This document shows, in pieces, positions 9,593-25,108 of a stretch of 53,981 bases of DNA (its first letter is position 1; each line of letters starts with the position of its first letter). A program made the translations under genes and the position numbers. The notes beneath the pieces were generated by a model. It was not told the DNA's origin, made no database searches, and was given only the letters and a program-made list of their open reading frames with translations. This stretch comes from a virus. Taxonomy: Duplodnaviria; Heunggongvirae; Uroviricota; Caudoviricetes. The stretch lies in IMG/VR virus record IMGVR_UViG_2529292919_000008; one strand, 5' to 3'.

Positions 9593-10249
9593 TCAGCCGC
9601 CGGACGCACTGCCGTAGTTCACTCCGGTGATCACCGCCACCGCCGCGGTACGGCGACGACGCCAGTTGATCCAGCGCTCCGCACGGATGGCCACGCTGCC
9701 TGTCTGGAACATGGAAACCAGCTCCACCGGGGACGGCGTGGTACTGTCGCCGGTCGGCTCAGACTGCATTTCCAGTGATGCCTCGCGGGACATATCCACT
9801 GCCACGCCTCCGTCATCCGCCAGATAAATATCCGGGGCATTCACCAGCACCAGCTGGTCACCCACGTACTGGGAGACAATCACCGGCAGCCCCTGGAAGG
9901 AGCCACCCAGCAGGGTCATGTCCGGGTATTCCTTCTGACCCAGCGCATTTTTACGCATGGACAGTGCCAGGGCATTGGTGCTGGACATCAGCCAGACCGC
10001 ACCGGTGGGCTGCAGGTTTGCTGCCACAAACTGTCCAAACGCAGCCTCTGCATCCGCATCCGGGTTACCGGTTGATGCCGTGCCCTTCACATCATGGGTG
10101 ATGGACGCCGGGGAGACATCTGCCACTGCGGCTTTTTTCGGGTCCACAAAGTCTGTATCCAGACGCGCCACCACCGCTTCCGCCAGCGCATTACGGACCA
10201 GTGCATCAGCAGCCGGACTGGAAAAACGGATCAATTCTTCCGTCAGTAC
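9593..10249 (-). pseudogene. 3' fragment of the HK97-type major capsid gene, split by the Mu-like insertion
   Basis: Translation ...LTEELIRFSSPAADALVRNALAEAV...FQTGSVAIRAERWINWRRRRTAAVAVITGVNY looks like an HK97-fold capsid C-terminus. The frame continues upstream only into Mu-end sequence and resumes in frame at 46661. Confidence 0.75.
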
Positions 10250-10410
10250 TGTGGGGTAGTGATCAATTCTGGGCGGAGTTAGTGCAGCCTGGTAGAACCG
10301 GCAAGCCTTGTGTGGCGCGGGGTGTGGTGATTTAGCGTGATTCTGGGCGGATTTGTGAGAAATGACCAAAAACGCTTTTTTTTGCGCTTTTTTCTGGGCG
10401 CTTTTGATCT
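10250..10410 (+). promoter_or_regulatory. Left end (attL) with three transposase-binding-like repeats
   Basis: TTCTGGGCG occurs at 10267, 10341 and 10391, and the same motif recurs at the right end. The third copy is preceded by GCGCTTTTT, as in the right terminus. Confidence 0.6.
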
Positions 10411-10561: not shown

Positions 10562-11209
10562 TTATGCTGATTTCTTGTTTACAGGCTTAGTTTCTTGCTC
10601 CGGTGTGACGGGAACGCGATCACCTGGTGTTCCAGCACAGAAAATGGCTTTGGCGCGGCGCAAAATCTCTTTGTCATTTTCCTCATCGCCAGCTAATGCC
10701 ATGCAAACAGCGTCTTTAAGCGATTGCCTGATGTTCAGGCTTTGAATGGCCTTTCTTTGCTCCTCAAGTTCGCTATCGGCTTGCTTAGTTTGCCTGGTGG
10801 GTTGCTGTAGGCGTTCCAAGATTCCTTTAATGCCCATATCGCATATTGCACTTATCAGCTGTTCCTTATCTTCTGTGGACGCTCTTTTCAATAACTCGTT
10901 AACTAGCTCGTTTGTAATATCGGGAGAAGGCTGCGCTGTTTGATTTGATAGAGAACTTTCTTTGGCGATGGGTTCCTCACCGTAAGCGAGCCAATTTAAG
11001 CTCACTTGTTCTTTATCTGATATAAGGCAAGCTATTTTAAAAGAAGGCTCTGTTCCTTTATGAATGTAGTTGTTTAAGGTTGAAGGGGGGATTCCCCAAT
11101 CACTCGCAGCAGTTCTGACACTACGGTTACCTATCAGCTTTACTAAACGCTCTCTGAAACTTTCTTTTTCCCGGTCGACAAAAGAAAAAGCATCATCATT
11201 TCTAGTCAT
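10562..11209 (-). CDS. Putative repressor (Mu c-like position), HTH DNA-binding protein
   Basis: 215 aa, transcribed leftward next to the left end and divergent from ner. HTH-like segment RTAASDWGIPPSTLNNYI...SLNWLAYGE. Confidence 0.5.
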   Translation of the reverse strand: MTRNDDAFSFVDREKESFRERLVKLIGNRSVRTAASDWGIPPSTLNNYIHKGTEPSFKIACLISDKEQVSLNWLAYGEEPIAKESSLSNQTAQPSPDITNELVNELLKRASTEDKEQLISAICDMGIKGILERLQQPTRQTKQADSELEEQRKAIQSLNIRQSLKDAVCMALAGDEENDKEILRRAKAIFCAGTPGDRVPVTPEQETKPVNKKSA

Positions 11210-11391: not shown

Positions 11392-11628
11392 ATGATGGTT
11401 AGAAATGAAGTAATGAACAAAGACTGGCACCGCGAGTACATCGTTGCCGCTGTGCACACCAAAGGTTTTACATTGCGTGAACTTTCTGAACGCGCTGGTC
11501 TAAAAAAAGACTCTTTAAAAAATGCACTGTATCGCTCATGCCCTAAATATGAACGCATCATAGCCGATGCTATTGGTGTGGAACCTGCGGAGATCTGGCC
11601 AAGCCGGTATGCCAGTAAGGCGGCGTAA
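11392..11628 (+). CDS. ner: Ner-like DNA-binding regulator
   Basis: 78 aa. Matches Mu Ner (...IWPSRY... C-terminus). Stop overlaps the A start (TAATG). Confidence 0.8.
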   Translation: MMVRNEVMNKDWHREYIVAAVHTKGFTLRELSERAGLKKDSLKNALYRSCPKYERIIADAIGVEPAEIWPSRYASKAA

Positions 11629-13670
11629 TGTTTTATTCAGCCAATGAGCTGGCCGGTCTTCCTGGTTTGCCCGGTACAGTTCAGGGGGTGCGCTGGACGC
11701 TCAATCGGATCACAGATACGCACCCGGAATGGAAGCGCAAGCGCGAAGGCACCAAAGCATTCGAGTATCACATCGACTGCCTGCCCGCTGAAGCGCAGAA
11801 AGTTTTACGTAAGCGCCTGACCCATCAGGTTCTGGAAGATGCACAACTGCCCGCCGTGGTTGAGCAGAAGGCAGTTAAAAACGTCGCCGTTCGCGATGAA
11901 CTGGAAGTGATGGTCAAATGCCCGGAACTGGCATTACGCGAAGTCCAGGCACTGACCGACAAGCAAAAGGCCATTGCTGATGCGCGGATATTGCTGGCTA
12001 CTGAAGTGCATAAACTGCGTGAATACGCCGGAATGACCAGGAAGGCCGCGTTAAAGCACATCGTTGATGGTGTGCGCATGGGGGCGTTGCCTGACCGCAT
12101 TATCGAAGCAGCGAATACTGCAAATGCACGTCAGGGAAAGCGAACCGGTGTCAGCACCGGCAGCCTGGATAGCTGGTACTCCAGCTGGGTGATGGCGCGC
12201 GGTGATGCCAATCAGTTACTGGCGTTACTGGCTCCCGGTCATCATAAGGGAACACCGTGGGAGCAGGTCTGGTGGTTGAGCGATTTCTTTATGTTCTATC
12301 GCTCATGGAAGCGCCCGACCGTTGAATACGCTTATCGCGAGTTTTCAGCCTGGTGGCATGAGAAACACGCGAATGATGCGGGAATGCTGGCGGCACTGCC
12401 TTCAGTTCACGCAGTAAGACGGGTGTTAAGCAACGTCCCGGTGATTGTTAAGGAGCGTTTCCGCTCCACCGGTTCAGCCTGGCGTTCGCTCAATCCTTTT
12501 GTGCGGCGCGACTGGAGCACATTACCGGTTAATGCGGTATGGGTCGGGGATGGTCACTGTATGAAAATGACTGCGTTTAACCCACTGACCGGCAATATTT
12601 TCCGGCCAGAAGTGACGCTGGTTATGGATGCGGGTCAACGCTTTGTTGTGGGCTGGTCACTATCCCTGTCGGAGAACGTGATAGCCGTTGCTGATGCGTT
12701 ACGTTACGGCATGGCGCAGCACGGGATACCGCTGATTTATTACTCCGATAACGGGGGCGGTGAAAAAAACCGGGTGCTTGATGCCGATATTACCGGGATT
12801 CTGCCCCGGCTGGGTGTGGAACATCACACGGGGATACCAGGTAACCCGCAGGGGCGCGGGGTGATTGAACGGGCAAACAAAGGAATACCCAAAGACGTGG
12901 CTCTGAGTTTCCAGACGTACTGCGCAAGGGATGCAGACAAGGAAACCGTAATGATGCAGCAACGGATTATGCAGTCAGCCATTAAGGCCACCCACAAAGG
13001 GAAAGAACTGACAAAACGGCAGGTTAAGGCGAGGGATGAAATCCCCACCTTTGAGCAACTGCTGGCAGCCATAGAGCTGGAGGTCAGACGCTATAACAAC
13101 CGGCCACACAGCAGCCTACCCCGCAAAGAGGATGGCGAATATTACAGCCCGGCAGCGTATCGCCGGAAACTGATAAAAGAGCAGAATGTTGAAATTGATT
13201 TCCTGTCGCCGGAAGAACTGCATGAAATGTTCAGACCGGAAGTGACGCGCAAAACATTTCGCGGGGAAATTCAGTTATTCAACAATATTTATTACTCATA
13301 TGAGCTGGCCGCAGAGCACGGGAATGAAGTCAGGGTCAGTTACGATATTCATGATGCAAACAGCGTCATTGTCCGGCGGGCTGATGGCTCTTATATCTGC
13401 GATGCCATCTGGAACGGTAACAAGGTTGATGCCTTCGCTAAACCAGTTATCGAACAAAAACTGGAGAAACGCGTCAGGGGCCGCATTGCACGGGCCACGC
13501 AGAAAATCGAAGAGGCTAAACGCGAGCTTACCCCGGCTATTACGCAGAAGCCTGACTTTAATCTGGGATATGGACTGGAACGCCCGGAGAAAAAGGAAAA
13601 AGAAGAACTTTATTTATTCGCATCTGAACGCGAGCGCAATTTAAAGAAAAACGGCACAAACAACCATTAA
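11628..13670 (+). CDS. A: Mu-type DDE transposase A
   Basis: 680 aa directly after ner. Translation carries WVGDGH and GIPGNPQGRGVIER segments that I read as the MuA-type DDE core; no search run. Confidence 0.9.
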   Translation: MFYSANELAGLPGLPGTVQGVRWTLNRITDTHPEWKRKREGTKAFEYHIDCLPAEAQKVLRKRLTHQVLEDAQLPAVVEQKAVKNVAVRDELEVMVKCPELALREVQALTDKQKAIADARILLATEVHKLREYAGMTRKAALKHIVDGVRMGALPDRIIEAANTANARQGKRTGVSTGSLDSWYSSWVMARGDANQLLALLAPGHHKGTPWEQVWWLSDFFMFYRSWKRPTVEYAYREFSAWWHEKHANDAGMLAALPSVHAVRRVLSNVPVIVKERFRSTGSAWRSLNPFVRRDWSTLPVNAVWVGDGHCMKMTAFNPLTGNIFRPEVTLVMDAGQRFVVGWSLSLSENVIAVADALRYGMAQHGIPLIYYSDNGGGEKNRVLDADITGILPRLGVEHHTGIPGNPQGRGVIERANKGIPKDVALSFQTYCARDADKETVMMQQRIMQSAIKATHKGKELTKRQVKARDEIPTFEQLLAAIELEVRRYNNRPHSSLPRKEDGEYYSPAAYRRKLIKEQNVEIDFLSPEELHEMFRPEVTRKTFRGEIQLFNNIYYSYELAAEHGNEVRVSYDIHDANSVIVRRADGSYICDAIWNGNKVDAFAKPVIEQKLEKRVRGRIARATQKIEEAKRELTPAITQKPDFNLGYGLERPEKKEKEELYLFASERERNLKKNGTNNH

Positions 13671-19290: not shown

Positions 19291-19695
19291 GTGAAGAAAA
19301 TGGTTTTTGTGGCGGCATTGCTGACCGTTACCCAACAGGCTTCAGCAGTTATTGTGGCATCTGCCGCTGCGACTACGGCTGCCGCAGCTGCTGCGAACTC
19401 TGCGAATATCGCAAGCCAACAGGAGCAGGACGCTGCTAACGCATCAGCCAGTGCTCTCCCGATTTTTGTTAAGGGCAGTAAGCTAAATCTGGGGTTCATA
19501 ACGTGCGGTAAGCGTTCTTATGAAGCTGTAGGCTCACTGGGATGTACGGTATATGGCGACAGTGAGAGCAGAGAAATTCCATGGAAAACGTGGCCCGGAT
19601 ACGTTCTTGGTTCGAAGCTCCCGGCCAGTTATGAGGTAAACGCCGTGTCGTTTGATCACTATAACGGCGTGGCAACTGTCTATTTCACATACTGA
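19291..19695 (+). CDS. Secreted protein with signal peptide and Ala/Thr-rich linker
   Basis: MKKMVFVAALLTVTQQASA signal-like N-terminus, then low-complexity AAATTAAAAAANSANIAS and a Cys-containing C-terminal domain. Confidence 0.45.
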   Translation: MKKMVFVAALLTVTQQASAVIVASAAATTAAAAAANSANIASQQEQDAANASASALPIFVKGSKLNLGFITCGKRSYEAVGSLGCTVYGDSESREIPWKTWPGYVLGSKLPASYEVNAVSFDHYNGVATVYFTY

Positions 19696-19989: not shown

Positions 19990-20268
19990 ATGAAGATTGA
20001 ACAAATCGGAATGGCAGCTTTCAGGCAACAGGCTGAAAGCGGTGGCGTGGATGAGTTCGTCGTGCAGCGGTTCGGTGGTGTGTATCACCTCTTCGCTGTG
20101 AATCGCCGCGCTGGGGTGTCCTATTTTCTACAGGAACGCCGTGGCGATTACAAGACGTGGCTGTCTCTTGATCGTGCCGCCGCGTTCTTGTCAGGGATTG
20201 GCGTTTCACGTTTTACCGTACGTTTTGAGGATAACAAACATGCTGAAAAAGATGATCGGGGCCATTAA
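19990..20268 (+). CDS. Hypothetical protein downstream of operator-like palindrome
   Basis: 92 aa from MKIEQIGMAAFRQQ. 3' end overlaps the gemA start. Confidence 0.35.
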   Translation: MKIEQIGMAAFRQQAESGGVDEFVVQRFGGVYHLFAVNRRAGVSYFLQERRGDYKTWLSLDRAAAFLSGIGVSRFTVRFEDNKHAEKDDRGH

Positions 20269-20638
20269 AGCCGGTCAGGCGTATCTGGGGTGGGATGATG
20301 CCCTTTATCGCCAGACGCTGGCCCGCCTGACCGGTAAAACCAGCACCACACGCTGCAATCTCAATGAACTGCGCATCATCCGGGAATACATGCACGAACA
20401 GGGATTCCCGCGCAAGGCACCCGCCGGTAAAGGTCGCCGCCCCCGTGTTGCAATGAGCAGAAAATCGGTATTATCCAAAATTGAAGCGTTGCTGGCTGAT
20501 GCCGGTCGTTCCTGGGGGTATGCGGAAGGACTGGCATCTCACATGTATAAGCAACATGTGATCGAATGGCTGACGGATGAACAGCTTTTCGGGGTGATGG
20601 TGGCGCTGGTTAAAGATTCAAGAAGGAGGAGTAAATGA
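20240..20638 (+). CDS. gemA: GemA-like regulatory protein (Mu gp16 family, DUF1018)
   Basis: ...AGQAYLGWDDALYRQTLARLTGKTSTTRCNLNELRIIREYMHEQGF... resembles Mu GemA. Located just before Mor, as in Mu. Confidence 0.65.
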   Translation: MLKKMIGAIKAGQAYLGWDDALYRQTLARLTGKTSTTRCNLNELRIIREYMHEQGFPRKAPAGKGRRPRVAMSRKSVLSKIEALLADAGRSWGYAEGLASHMYKQHVIEWLTDEQLFGVMVALVKDSRRRSK

Positions 20639-21138
20639 TTAAAAAACGGTATTTTCTTTTAGTAGCGTTCATTTTGTCTTTTCCTGCCGTTGCTGAATGG
20701 CACACATGGGTACAAAAAGATGCTTTTGATGATCAACAAACAGCCATGATGGTGGGTATTGGAACAATGGATTTTGGGATTGCTTTAGACTGTTCGAATG
20801 ACTCACTATTCGCTGGTATTACAAAAGAAACAGATAAAGTTAACATTGCGTTATTCGGTTCATCAAAAGATTTAATATTTAGGATAGACGAATTTCCAGC
20901 AGTAAAGACCACAGGGGTACTCGCTGCACGAAATGAAAAAATGTATATTTATAAAATAGAGGACGAACAAAAAATCAAAGAGTTGTTATCTTATCTTCGA
21001 AAAGCCCAAAAACGTGTTTTAGCTGGTGTAAAAGAACCGAGTGAAGAACGAGGCGCATCGTTTAATGTAACACCGACAGGTTCAACAACCGCTGTTAATA
21101 AATTTATCAAAGCCTGTAACATCAAGATTCCAGAGTAA
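20635..21138 (+). CDS. AT-rich moron: secreted protein with signal peptide
   Basis: ATGA overlap with the gemA stop. Signal-like MIKKRYFLLVAFILSFPAVA then EW. Codon composition visibly AT-rich against GC-rich flanks. Followed by an intrinsic terminator. Confidence 0.5.
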   Translation: MIKKRYFLLVAFILSFPAVAEWHTWVQKDAFDDQQTAMMVGIGTMDFGIALDCSNDSLFAGITKETDKVNIALFGSSKDLIFRIDEFPAVKTTGVLAARNEKMYIYKIEDEQKIKELLSYLRKAQKRVLAGVKEPSEERGASFNVTPTGSTTAVNKFIKACNIKIPE

Positions 21139-21145
21139 CTTAATA

Positions 21146-21174
21146 GCCGCCCCTGCCATGTAGGGGCTTTTTTG
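21146..21174 (+). terminator. Rho-independent terminator after the moron
   Basis: GC stem (GCCGCCCCT / AGGGGC) followed by TTTTTTG. Confidence 0.6.
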
Positions 21175-21236
21175 TGGTCTGTACAGGCGATCATGTATGG
21201 CTATAATAACAGTAAGTTACTACCGGAGACGCCATC

Positions 21237-21704
21237 ATGCAGACCTTCAGTGAAACAGATCTTCGCGATGCGCAGGCACTGCTGCCCGATTCCGTGCAGC
21301 AACTGATTAGCGTGATTGGCTTCCCCGCCCTGACCCGGTTAATCCGTTCTTTTGGTGGCGTGACGTTAAGCGGTAAAACCGGCGCACACGCCGAACGCAC
21401 CGGCGGTGTCCATGCCCTGTTACATGATGTGCTGACCGAAGACGAAATCAACAAACTGATCCGCTTTCTTGGCGGTGCGCCGTTTTACATTCCCCGTTGC
21501 GATCATGCGTTACGTGCCCTGCGTAACACCCGTTTTATGGCAGATTTACAGCAGCATGTAAAAGACGGATGCTCACACCGGCAGGCGCTGGCACTACTCT
21601 GTCCCCGTTACGGGATTTCAGACCGGTACGCATGGCAGCTGATACACCGACGACAAAAGCAGACTTCGCTGAAAAGCCCCACCCAGGTGGGGCTTTTTGA
21701 TTAA
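21237..21704 (+). CDS. mor: Mor/C-family transcriptional activator
   Basis: 155 aa with C-terminal HTH-like RQALALLCPRYGISDRYAWQLI. Position after gemA, as for Mu mor. Confidence 0.55.
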   Translation: MQTFSETDLRDAQALLPDSVQQLISVIGFPALTRLIRSFGGVTLSGKTGAHAERTGGVHALLHDVLTEDEINKLIRFLGGAPFYIPRCDHALRALRNTRFMADLQQHVKDGCSHRQALALLCPRYGISDRYAWQLIHRRQKQTSLKSPTQVGLFD

Positions 21705-24367: not shown

Positions 24368-25108
24368 ATGCAAAAACAGATTATTGGTAACGCAACGTTG
24401 TATTGCGGTGATGTTCTTGATGTGCTGCCAGCGTTATCCGAACGTTTTGATGCCGTCATTACCGACCCGCCTTACAGCAGTGGTGGCACACATAAATCAG
24501 ACCGCAGCATAGCCCCTTCGGACAAGTATGTCGGTCACACCCAGTATGCCGAGTTCACCGGCGATAACCGCGACCAGCGCAGCTGGGCGTTCTGGTGTTC
24601 CATGTGGATTTCTCATGCATTGCACAGGCTGAATCCCGGCGGTTATTTCATGGTGTTCAGTGACTGGCGACAACTACCGGCGCTTACCGATGCATTTCAG
24701 GCCGGTGGTGTGCTGTGGCGTGGTCTGGTTGTCTGGGATAAAACGCTTGCTTCCCGTGCGCCACACACCGGCTATTTCCGGCATCAGGCCGAGTATGTGG
24801 TCTGGGGCAGCAACGGAAAACTCGACAAATGCCCGCACGGTGGCCCGTTCCCGGGTGTGATTACACAGCGTGTTGTCCCGTCCGAAAAACTGCACATGAC
24901 GGCAAAGCCGGTTCAGTTGATGGCCGAACTGGTTAAACCGCTGGCACCGGATGCGCACGTTCTCGATCCGTTTATGGGAAGCGGCACCACCGCCATCCCG
25001 GTACTTGCCCGTGGCGGACGGTTTACCGGCATTGAAATGACTAACCAGTATTTTGATATCGCCTGCGCACGTCTCGAAAAAGCGCAGGCAGAAGCAGCGC
25101 AGGTGTGA
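24368..25108 (+). CDS. DNA methyltransferase (N6-adenine or N4-cytosine), orphan
   Basis: Catalytic DPPY motif (AVITDPPYSSGG) near the N-terminus and AdoMet-binding FMGSGTT near the C-terminus. No adjacent restriction endonuclease. Confidence 0.8.
   Translation: MQKQIIGNATLYCGDVLDVLPALSERFDAVITDPPYSSGGTHKSDRSIAPSDKYVGHTQYAEFTGDNRDQRSWAFWCSMWISHALHRLNPGGYFMVFSDWRQLPALTDAFQAGGVLWRGLVVWDKTLASRAPHTGYFRHQAEYVVWGSNGKLDKCPHGGPFPGVITQRVVPSEKLHMTAKPVQLMAELVKPLAPDAHVLDPFMGSGTTAIPVLARGGRFTGIEMTNQYFDIACARLEKAQAEAAQV

Follow-up and report, generated by a model that had tools for sequence, protein, structure and literature searches.

An exchangeable cargo gene between gemA and mor in a Mu-like prophage of Escherichia coli

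The cargo gene and its slot

The IMG/VR virus record IMGVR_UViG_2529292919_000008, analysed here over its whole 53,981 nucleotides (the window), contains a Mu-like transposable prophage of Escherichia coli. Between the prophage genes gemA (20240..20638, plus strand) and mor (21237..21704, plus strand) lies an open reading frame (ORF) at 20635..21138, also on the plus strand, with an ATG start and a 167-aa product. This ORF, hereafter the cargo gene, is a functional, horizontally acquired accessory gene that occupies a polymorphic slot where the early operon ends. The start codon (ATG, 20635-20637) and the TGA stop of gemA (20636-20638) overlap as ATGA, and a Shine-Dalgarno sequence read from the DNA, AGGAGG (20624-20629, plus strand), lies within the last gemA codons, 5 nt before the ATG. 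The upstream neighbor, the final backbone gene of the early operon, encodes a 132-aa protein that matches PF06252 (GemA, E 7.9e-18) and is labelled 'gp16 family protein / regulatory protein GemA' in RefSeq relatives. The downstream neighbor encodes a 155-aa middle-gene activator that matches PF08765 (Mor, E 1.1e-6) and phrog_836 ('late transcriptional activator', E 1.2e-42).

The GC content of the cargo ORF is 36.3%, compared to values of 53.6% in gemA, 54.9% in mor and 54.4% over the whole window, and at third codon positions (GC3) it is 27%, compared to 57-58% for the flanking genes. Among stretches of 504 nt, the ORF is essentially the poorest in GC that the 54-kb window contains, with only 0.0075% of them lower. 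The original prediction, made from the sequence of this stretch, had described a 167-aa ORF in an ATGA overlap with the gemA stop, placed between gemA and mor and visibly poorer in GC than the flanking early genes, and the calculations bear out each of these points. The sole other strong low-GC valley of the window (down to 37%) is the CI-type repressor gene at the left prophage end (10565-11209, minus strand).

The slot was studied in 5 of 58 E. coli loci with matching flanks, in 19 IMG/VR relatives found via Mor (the unbiased set), and in loci carrying homologs of the protein. A comparison of the gemA-mor junctions of 31 related loci delimits an exchangeable cargo module of 540 bp (20609..21148, plus strand), within which identity to the relatives falls from 95-100% to 40-70%. 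The module consists of an alternative gemA tail with a ribosome-binding site, the cargo ORF, and a 10-nt spacer, and replaces 52 bp of the empty-slot relatives. Accordingly, the swapped module includes the last ~30 nt of gemA (from 20609). Whenever the slot is filled, the GemA terminus changes from one that ends in LTKDARKRARAARKQ to one with LVKDSRRR close to its end, and the new tail bears AGGAG.

In near-identical backbones, the junction occurs in four states, being either empty or filled with one of three unrelated exported proteins. Among the 19 Mor-selected IMG/VR loci, seven have no gene in the slot, six carry cargo A (158-159 aa, helical), five carry cargo B (112 aa, with a weak Sel1-like signal), and one carries cargo C (167-168 aa), the family of the gene studied here. 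All three cargo types encode signal peptides, have a GC content of 38-41%, and are ATGA-coupled to gemA, with AGGAG kept at the same place. Scans of IMG/VR and of metagenomes with the left-junction DNA pattern recovered only types A, B and C, with no fourth type, and a scan of genome contigs with Mor yielded no confirmed locus.

In closely related prophages with flanks ~97% identical to ours (L002, L005 and the seven IMG/VR relatives), gemA abuts mor without an intervening gene. The two genes likewise adjoin in Klebsiella phage Kp4852-3, which is the nearest phage among those deposited (GemA 64% identical, Mor 40%). The gene is thus accessory and not part of a conserved core, as the original prediction had proposed. 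Among 5,426 complete E. coli genomes, 58 contain DNA that matches the gemA and mor flanks (95-99% identity); the cargo gene itself is found in none of the 5,426, including the 58 with matching flanks. The exact protein is encoded on 85 contigs, from many E. coli isolates. No match to the gene was detected in 50,697 deposited phage genomes by megablast or tblastn, and a distant family member used as the tblastn query against deposited phage genomes gave no match either.

The module is followed by an intrinsic-terminator-like hairpin with a T6 run (21149..21173, plus strand). The hairpin part (21149-21167) has 8 pairs, 6 of them G-C, with a folding energy of -14.9 kcal/mol (z = -2.1), and is unique in the window. 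The GC hairpin and T-run noticed previously are therefore real, but they had been taken for the gene's own terminator, and this assignment does not hold: in empty-slot prophages, GCCCCTGCCTTGCAGGGGC-T6 comes immediately 3' of gemA, followed by an identical GGTCTGTACAGGCGATCATGTATGGCTATAAT stretch and then by mor. Two hairpin types, T1 (GCCCCTGCC..AGGGGC) and T2 (CCTCCGCAAACGCGGAGG), were distinguished, with no one-to-one tie to cargo type. Farther downstream, ahead of mor, there is a sigma-70-like promoter match, TGTACA-16-TATAAT (21180..21207, plus strand; a consensus match only, 10/12), which is kept in all slot states; this right-hand anchor is conserved in 30 of the 31 loci. Because the hairpin with its T-run and the promoter-like site are both present in empty-slot relatives, both are features of the backbone. 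No sigma-70-like match was found upstream of the cargo gene on the plus strand, from 19800 to the start codon, in a consensus scan that a weak or atypical promoter could escape. Together with the conserved ATGA coupling, this result identifies the cargo gene as the tail of the early operon rather than as a moron with its own promoter and terminator.

These observations bear on the possibility that the gene is a classical, self-contained moron for lysogenic conversion, that is, a unit transcribed in the repressed prophage, closed by its own terminator, and encoding a host-interaction or virulence product, such as an IalB-like aid to adhesion or invasion. The original prediction had called the gene a classic moron, and part of this description stands: it is an extra gene between genes adjacent in related phages, its composition is unlike that of its neighbors, and its product is likely exported. 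The exact protein being present in many E. coli isolates (the 85 contigs) would fit this explanation as well. The remaining part, namely, a promoter and a terminator of its own, does not stand, given that the terminator is present in empty-slot relatives, the consensus scan found no promoter, and the ATGA coupling is common to all three cargo types. In this context, it is doubtful that the repressed prophage expresses the cargo gene, and, with the structural evidence presented below also taken into account, we consider a classical moron improbable.

A protein family with a signal peptide and a predicted IalB-like fold

The N-terminus of the product consists of a charged start (MIKKR), a hydrophobic core (YFLLVAFILSF), and PAVA followed by E, which fits the AxA pattern. 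The export call was based on these properties, that is, a charged start, a hydrophobic core and small residues at -3/-1, along with the absence of a lipobox. The part coding for the predicted signal peptide, MIKKRYFLLVAFILSFPAVA, spans 20635..20694 (plus strand), with cleavage predicted after A20. Signal-peptide-like N-termini were found in 67 of 70 family members; at the cleavage site, Ala occupies position -1 in 62 of 68 sequences and position -3 in 48 of 68, in agreement with the secretion signal originally proposed. A lipobox was detected in none of the 70 family members, which rules out a lipoprotein. The mature protein (20695..21138 with the stop codon, plus strand) has 147 aa, 16.4 kDa and a pI of ~6.0, and contains Cys53 and Cys161. 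Exactly two cysteines are found in the mature part of 67 of 68 sequences; in the 70-sequence alignment, C53 and C161 are invariant and A20, W22, F31, D85, N100, G131 and F157 nearly so. Judging from this conservation, C53 and C161 probably form a disulfide, and the product is very probably a soluble periplasmic protein exported with a Sec-type signal peptide.

A word-indexed search of 5.8 billion proteins returned only four clusters, all from the same gemA-mor slot. An exhaustive HMMER search retrieved 76 homologs at E <= 1e-3, 15 of these at E <= 1e-10, nearly all 160-180 aa in length and aligned end-to-end. The protein belongs to phrog_19473 of PHROGs v4 (E 1.4e-85, residues 1-165 on profile positions 5-167), a family with no described function, structure or Pfam counterpart. 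P0080, P0082, P0083 and P0088 match the same profile, and relatives come from Enterobacter, Hafnia, Pantoea and Devosia prophages. In every source, the annotation is 'hypothetical protein'.

An AlphaFold2 (AF2) model built from 5 sequences was mediocre (predicted local distance difference test score, pLDDT, 69) and was superseded by one built from 70 sequences, which gives a confident, compact fold. In this model, the mature protein is predicted to be an IalB/MotY-N-like beta-sandwich with helices. Its best structural match is Bartonella IalB, with the predicted fold resembling that in PDB 3DTD (Bartonella henselae invasion-associated protein B); MotY, of the flagellar T-ring, is also among the fold relatives of the model, and an IalB-annotated phage protein is among the BFVD fold matches. 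Proteins of the IalB family (PF06776 / COG5342) likewise are small envelope proteins with signal peptides; the difference is in the sequence, with only 16% identity between 3DTD and the cargo protein. The Pfam IalB model PF06776 does not match the protein at E <= 0.1 or any of the 70 family members at E <= 0.01. The family profile gave only noise against PDB sequences, with a de novo designed protein as the best match (E 0.004), and none of five candidate ORFs of Sphingobium phage Lacusarx matched IalB. Shared ancestry of the cargo family and IalB is unproven. With regard to periplasmic lysozyme inhibitors (Ivy, PliC/MliC), there was neither a family HMM match nor a fold match. What the predicted fold suggests is a partner protein in the periplasm that is not an enzyme, with no role more specific than that. 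In the Vibrio T-ring, MotX and MotY, with Sel1-repeat and MotY-N folds, respectively, are partners; the joint occurrence in this slot of cargo B, with its weak Sel1-repeat signal, and cargo C, which resembles the MotY N-domain, is probably a coincidence.

The best structural match could be taken in favor of a virulence moron, IalB being linked to erythrocyte invasion (Coleman & Minnick 2001). Against this, the failure of the Pfam IalB model on all 70 family members has to be set, as well as the finding that IalB-domain proteins have general envelope roles in free-living Rhizobiales, so that the fold does not imply invasion. The molecular mechanism of IalB is unknown, and RgsG, an IalB-domain protein of Sinorhizobium, is essential in the periplasm at the growing pole and works alongside Tol-Pal (PMC7327166). 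In addition, family members of the cargo protein are found in soil and environmental bacteria (Devosia, Achromobacter, Pantoea), which further argues against an invasion factor.

Exchange, selection and genomic surroundings

Alleles of cargo C are 95-100% identical in their flanks and 40-70% identical in the ORF interior, with sharp edges near 20600-20630 and 21080-21110. The synonymous divergence (dS) is 1.25-1.30 in the cargo gene compared to 0.07-0.14 in gemA and mor, and the ratio of nonsynonymous to synonymous divergence (dN/dS) between cargo-C alleles is 0.10-0.29. Hence the alleles are old, evolve under purifying selection, and have been swapped into a young backbone. Positive selection on the gene is ruled out by these dN/dS values.

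The same values speak to the reading of the ORF as non-functional or decaying, AT-rich junk DNA, which might be entertained given that no source annotates a function and that the gene is so rare (0 of 5,426 complete E. coli genomes). Even at saturating dS, the dN/dS of 0.10-0.29 indicates purifying selection that effectively refutes this reading. Moreover, the protein is conserved over its full length in 76 distant homologs, with invariant cysteines, it is predicted to adopt a confident, compact fold, and the ribosome-binding site and the coupling to gemA are conserved. The probability that the ORF is junk is negligible, and a chance ORF is likewise ruled out by dN/dS in combination with the full-length homologs.

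A leader starting with MMKKWLFCLVG.. is common to the unrelated cargo A and to cargo-C alleles P0003 and P0004, and P0001, 98% identical to the protein under study, has the chimeric leader MMKKWLFCLV-AFILSFPAVA. From these sequences, the leader seems to work as a recombination arm. As a separate observation, the same signal-peptide coding sequence (MMKKWLFCLVG...) recurs in unrelated cargo proteins, the loci listed being L001/L004 (cargo A) and L003 (cargo B). The module ends carry an 11-nt imperfect direct repeat, 20613-20623 (AAGATTCAAGA) and 21124-21134 (AAGATTCCAGA). This repeat is the only candidate for a mobile-element signature around the module; it does not accompany cargo A or B, is probably due to chance, and was rejected as such a signature.

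Other members of the family are found in diverse positions. In Hafnia, the gene is a separate unit just upstream of gemA in a Mu-like prophage, with its own hairpin. In Enterobacter (L032), it lies in a lambdoid prophage, on the opposite strand, between the terminase region and the lysis genes. In Pantoea, it precedes the small terminase of a prophage remnant, and in Devosia, it adjoins the tail tape-measure gene. In another prophage (L067), it is located 14 nt downstream of a Peptidase_S24 (CI/LexA-type) repressor gene on the same strand, which resembles the arrangement of lambda cI-rex in that the family member comes just behind the repressor. Finally, the family member adjoins BREX in a metagenomic element (L040), and a Mrr-type nuclease and a transposase in Achromobacter (L038). 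Several of these positions are typical of lysogen-expressed genes or defense islands. In the Enterobacter prophage, the family member also adjoins two genes (8281-8703 and 9056-9415 of L032), one for an exported, Ivy-like protein that has a CMPHNC loop and one for a small lipoprotein whose C-terminal domain is that of TolA, so that this neighborhood is a cluster of envelope-directed prophage cargo. The TolA-domain lipoprotein could be a decoy against Tol-dependent colicins or phages.

The rest of the prophage is consistent with a Mu-like element. Besides the CI-type repressor, the prophage encodes the Mu transposase A (11628-13667) and a B-like ATPase; after GemA and Mor come two holins and a GH108 endolysin, with a Mu-type portal and baseplate genes further on. 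The endolysin varies among relatives, being either GH108 or Peptidase_M15_4 (L006, L011). In the early region, an ORF at 19291-19695 (plus strand) encodes a 134-aa protein of phrog_8805 (a family of unknown function) with a signal-peptide-like N-terminus, MKKMVFVAALLTVTQQASA, and then an Ala/Thr-rich stretch; to judge by this N-terminus, it may be another exported early protein. A gene for an N6/N4 DNA methyltransferase with a DPPY motif (24368-25108, plus strand), between a DUF1804 gene and the terminase, is also present in L006, L009 and L010 and absent from the otherwise syntenic L007 and L008, which makes it a second presence/absence slot. For Mu, the early operon has been described as ending with mor (PMC9936078). 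Here, mor resembles a separate one-gene unit, with TGTACA-16-TATAAT just past the terminator on the gemA side and a strong hairpin with a T-run within its 3' end (21671-21698; -20.6 kcal/mol, z = -3.2). The timing of middle-gene expression in this lineage may therefore differ from that in Mu, where the early promoter reads mor.

On both sides, the Mu-like prophage is flanked by lambdoid-prophage genes, which lie on the minus strand throughout, and it therefore appears to be inserted in that lambdoid prophage. The left flank (1-10400) contains tail tube, tape-measure, portal and capsid-like genes and is 99.6% identical to an E2348/69 prophage; the right flank (48000-53981) contains the large terminase. 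Such an insertion would split the head-gene region of the lambdoid prophage.

Possible role of the cargo protein and comparison with known systems

With respect to accessory status, mode of insertion, coupling to gemA, the backbone terminator, likely export, family and fold, we are highly confident in the description above. The function is a different matter. Our favored, tentative proposal, to which we give somewhat less than even chances, is that the product, acting as a binding protein in the periplasm, shields the cell that carries the phage from envelope-crossing agents. The arguments for protection come from the surroundings of other family members, namely the CI/LexA-type repressor gene, the Ivy-like and TolA-domain proteins, BREX, and the Mrr-type nuclease. 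The complete explanation, combining the coupled cargo gene with this protective role, is the best available and comes close to even odds without reaching them.

In this explanation, the module supplies an alternative gemA tail bearing the ribosome-binding site, the cargo protein is made from the early transcript via translational coupling at the ATGA, and the backbone hairpin ahead of mor stops or attenuates transcription. In the periplasm, the protein would act by binding, not as an enzyme; its likeliest target would be a superinfecting phage, excluded at or after DNA injection, and the alternative target would be a toxin or a lysozyme that acts in the periplasm. The slot would be refilled through recombination, with the conserved gemA tail or leader as the left arm and the terminator as the right arm.

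Several results weigh against such a protective function. Neither Pfam nor NCBIfam gave a credible match, whether to the protein itself or to the alternative cargo proteins. PADLOC-DB gave only UzuA (E 0.023 over 39 residues), which is noise, and the alternative cargo proteins had no match there. No molecular mechanism is known for the fold relatives, dN/dS does not suggest an arms race within the gene, and the context evidence comes from only about six independent neighborhoods. Above all, the gene is here part of the early, lytic operon, and no promoter for expression in a lysogen was detected, so protection of the lysogen may not apply, and the activity of the protein may be confined to infected or induced cells, as it is with the early exclusion genes that lytic phages carry.

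Expression with the early lytic operon, immediately upstream of mor and of the holin/endolysin cassette, also fits a periplasmic helper of the phage's own lytic cycle, which would tune the cell wall or Tol-Pal, set lysis timing, or mask receptors against loss of progeny on debris, to the benefit of the phage and not of the lysogen. The fold relatives, MotY of the flagellar T-ring and RgsG, which works alongside Tol-Pal, serve as structural partners in the periplasm, and T5 Llp and T4 Sp/Imm, early-expressed envelope proteins, are precedents. However, a slot that is empty in 7 of 19 relatives and filled with unrelated proteins in others does not accommodate a function essential to the phage, and other family members occupy lysogeny-type positions, behind a CI-like repressor or on the opposite strand in the late region. 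We regard a helper of this kind as unlikely, although less so than a classical moron.

As for the preferred protective role, a more far-reaching version can be formulated, in which the gemA-mor junction would be a dedicated 'periplasmic effector slot', with cassettes placed behind a shared ribosome-binding site and leader, and phrog_19473 would represent a family, both new and widespread, of prophage-encoded proteins for exclusion or immunity at the envelope. This version is speculative, and we would bet against it; if true, it could also provide the first mechanistic handle on the ligands of IalB-fold proteins.

Exclusion, defense and fitness factors have a main source in the accessory genes that temperate phages carry, and most of these genes are unannotated. 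The present analysis defines the phrog_19473 family, with ~165 aa, a signal peptide, two invariant cysteines and a predicted IalB-like fold, in Mu-like and lambdoid prophages and beside defense systems. The slot amounts to a natural experiment, with near-identical prophages that carry nothing or one of three exported proteins, and an isogenic comparison could assign the function quickly. Should the protein be an exclusion factor, one more family would be added to the catalog of envelope-level defense, with a hint at the role of IalB-fold proteins; should it not, it would be a routine hypothetical cargo protein.

Genomic plasticity regions (RGPs A-I) have been described in the D3112-like Mu-like phages of Pseudomonas (Cazares et al. 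2014, PMC4378225). The slot described here resembles these regions, and phage morons in the sense of Juhala and Hendrix, in that a single accessory ORF forms a GC valley and is present or absent between genes adjacent in relatives, with unrelated genes at the same site across genomes. It differs in that the cargo gene lacks a detectable promoter and a terminator of its own, is coupled to a core gene, and is followed by a backbone terminator, and in that the left recombination arm seemingly is the gemA tail or leader, at times the signal-peptide coding region.

Phage-encoded proteins of envelope-level exclusion and protection include T4 Imm/Sp, T5 Llp, phi80 Cor, HK97 gp15 and lambda Bor, and there are the Ivy-type lysozyme inhibitors. 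The cargo protein is akin to these as a small, exported, dispensable phage product, some of the known proteins also being early-expressed, and one family member is encoded beside an Ivy-like gene and a TolA-domain lipoprotein gene. The difference is that the cargo protein is predicted to be soluble, neither a lipoprotein nor a membrane protein. Thus, accessory indel sites in Mu-like phages were already known, and what the present analysis adds is a four-state slot with a shared leader and an uncharacterized family of proteins with a predicted IalB fold.
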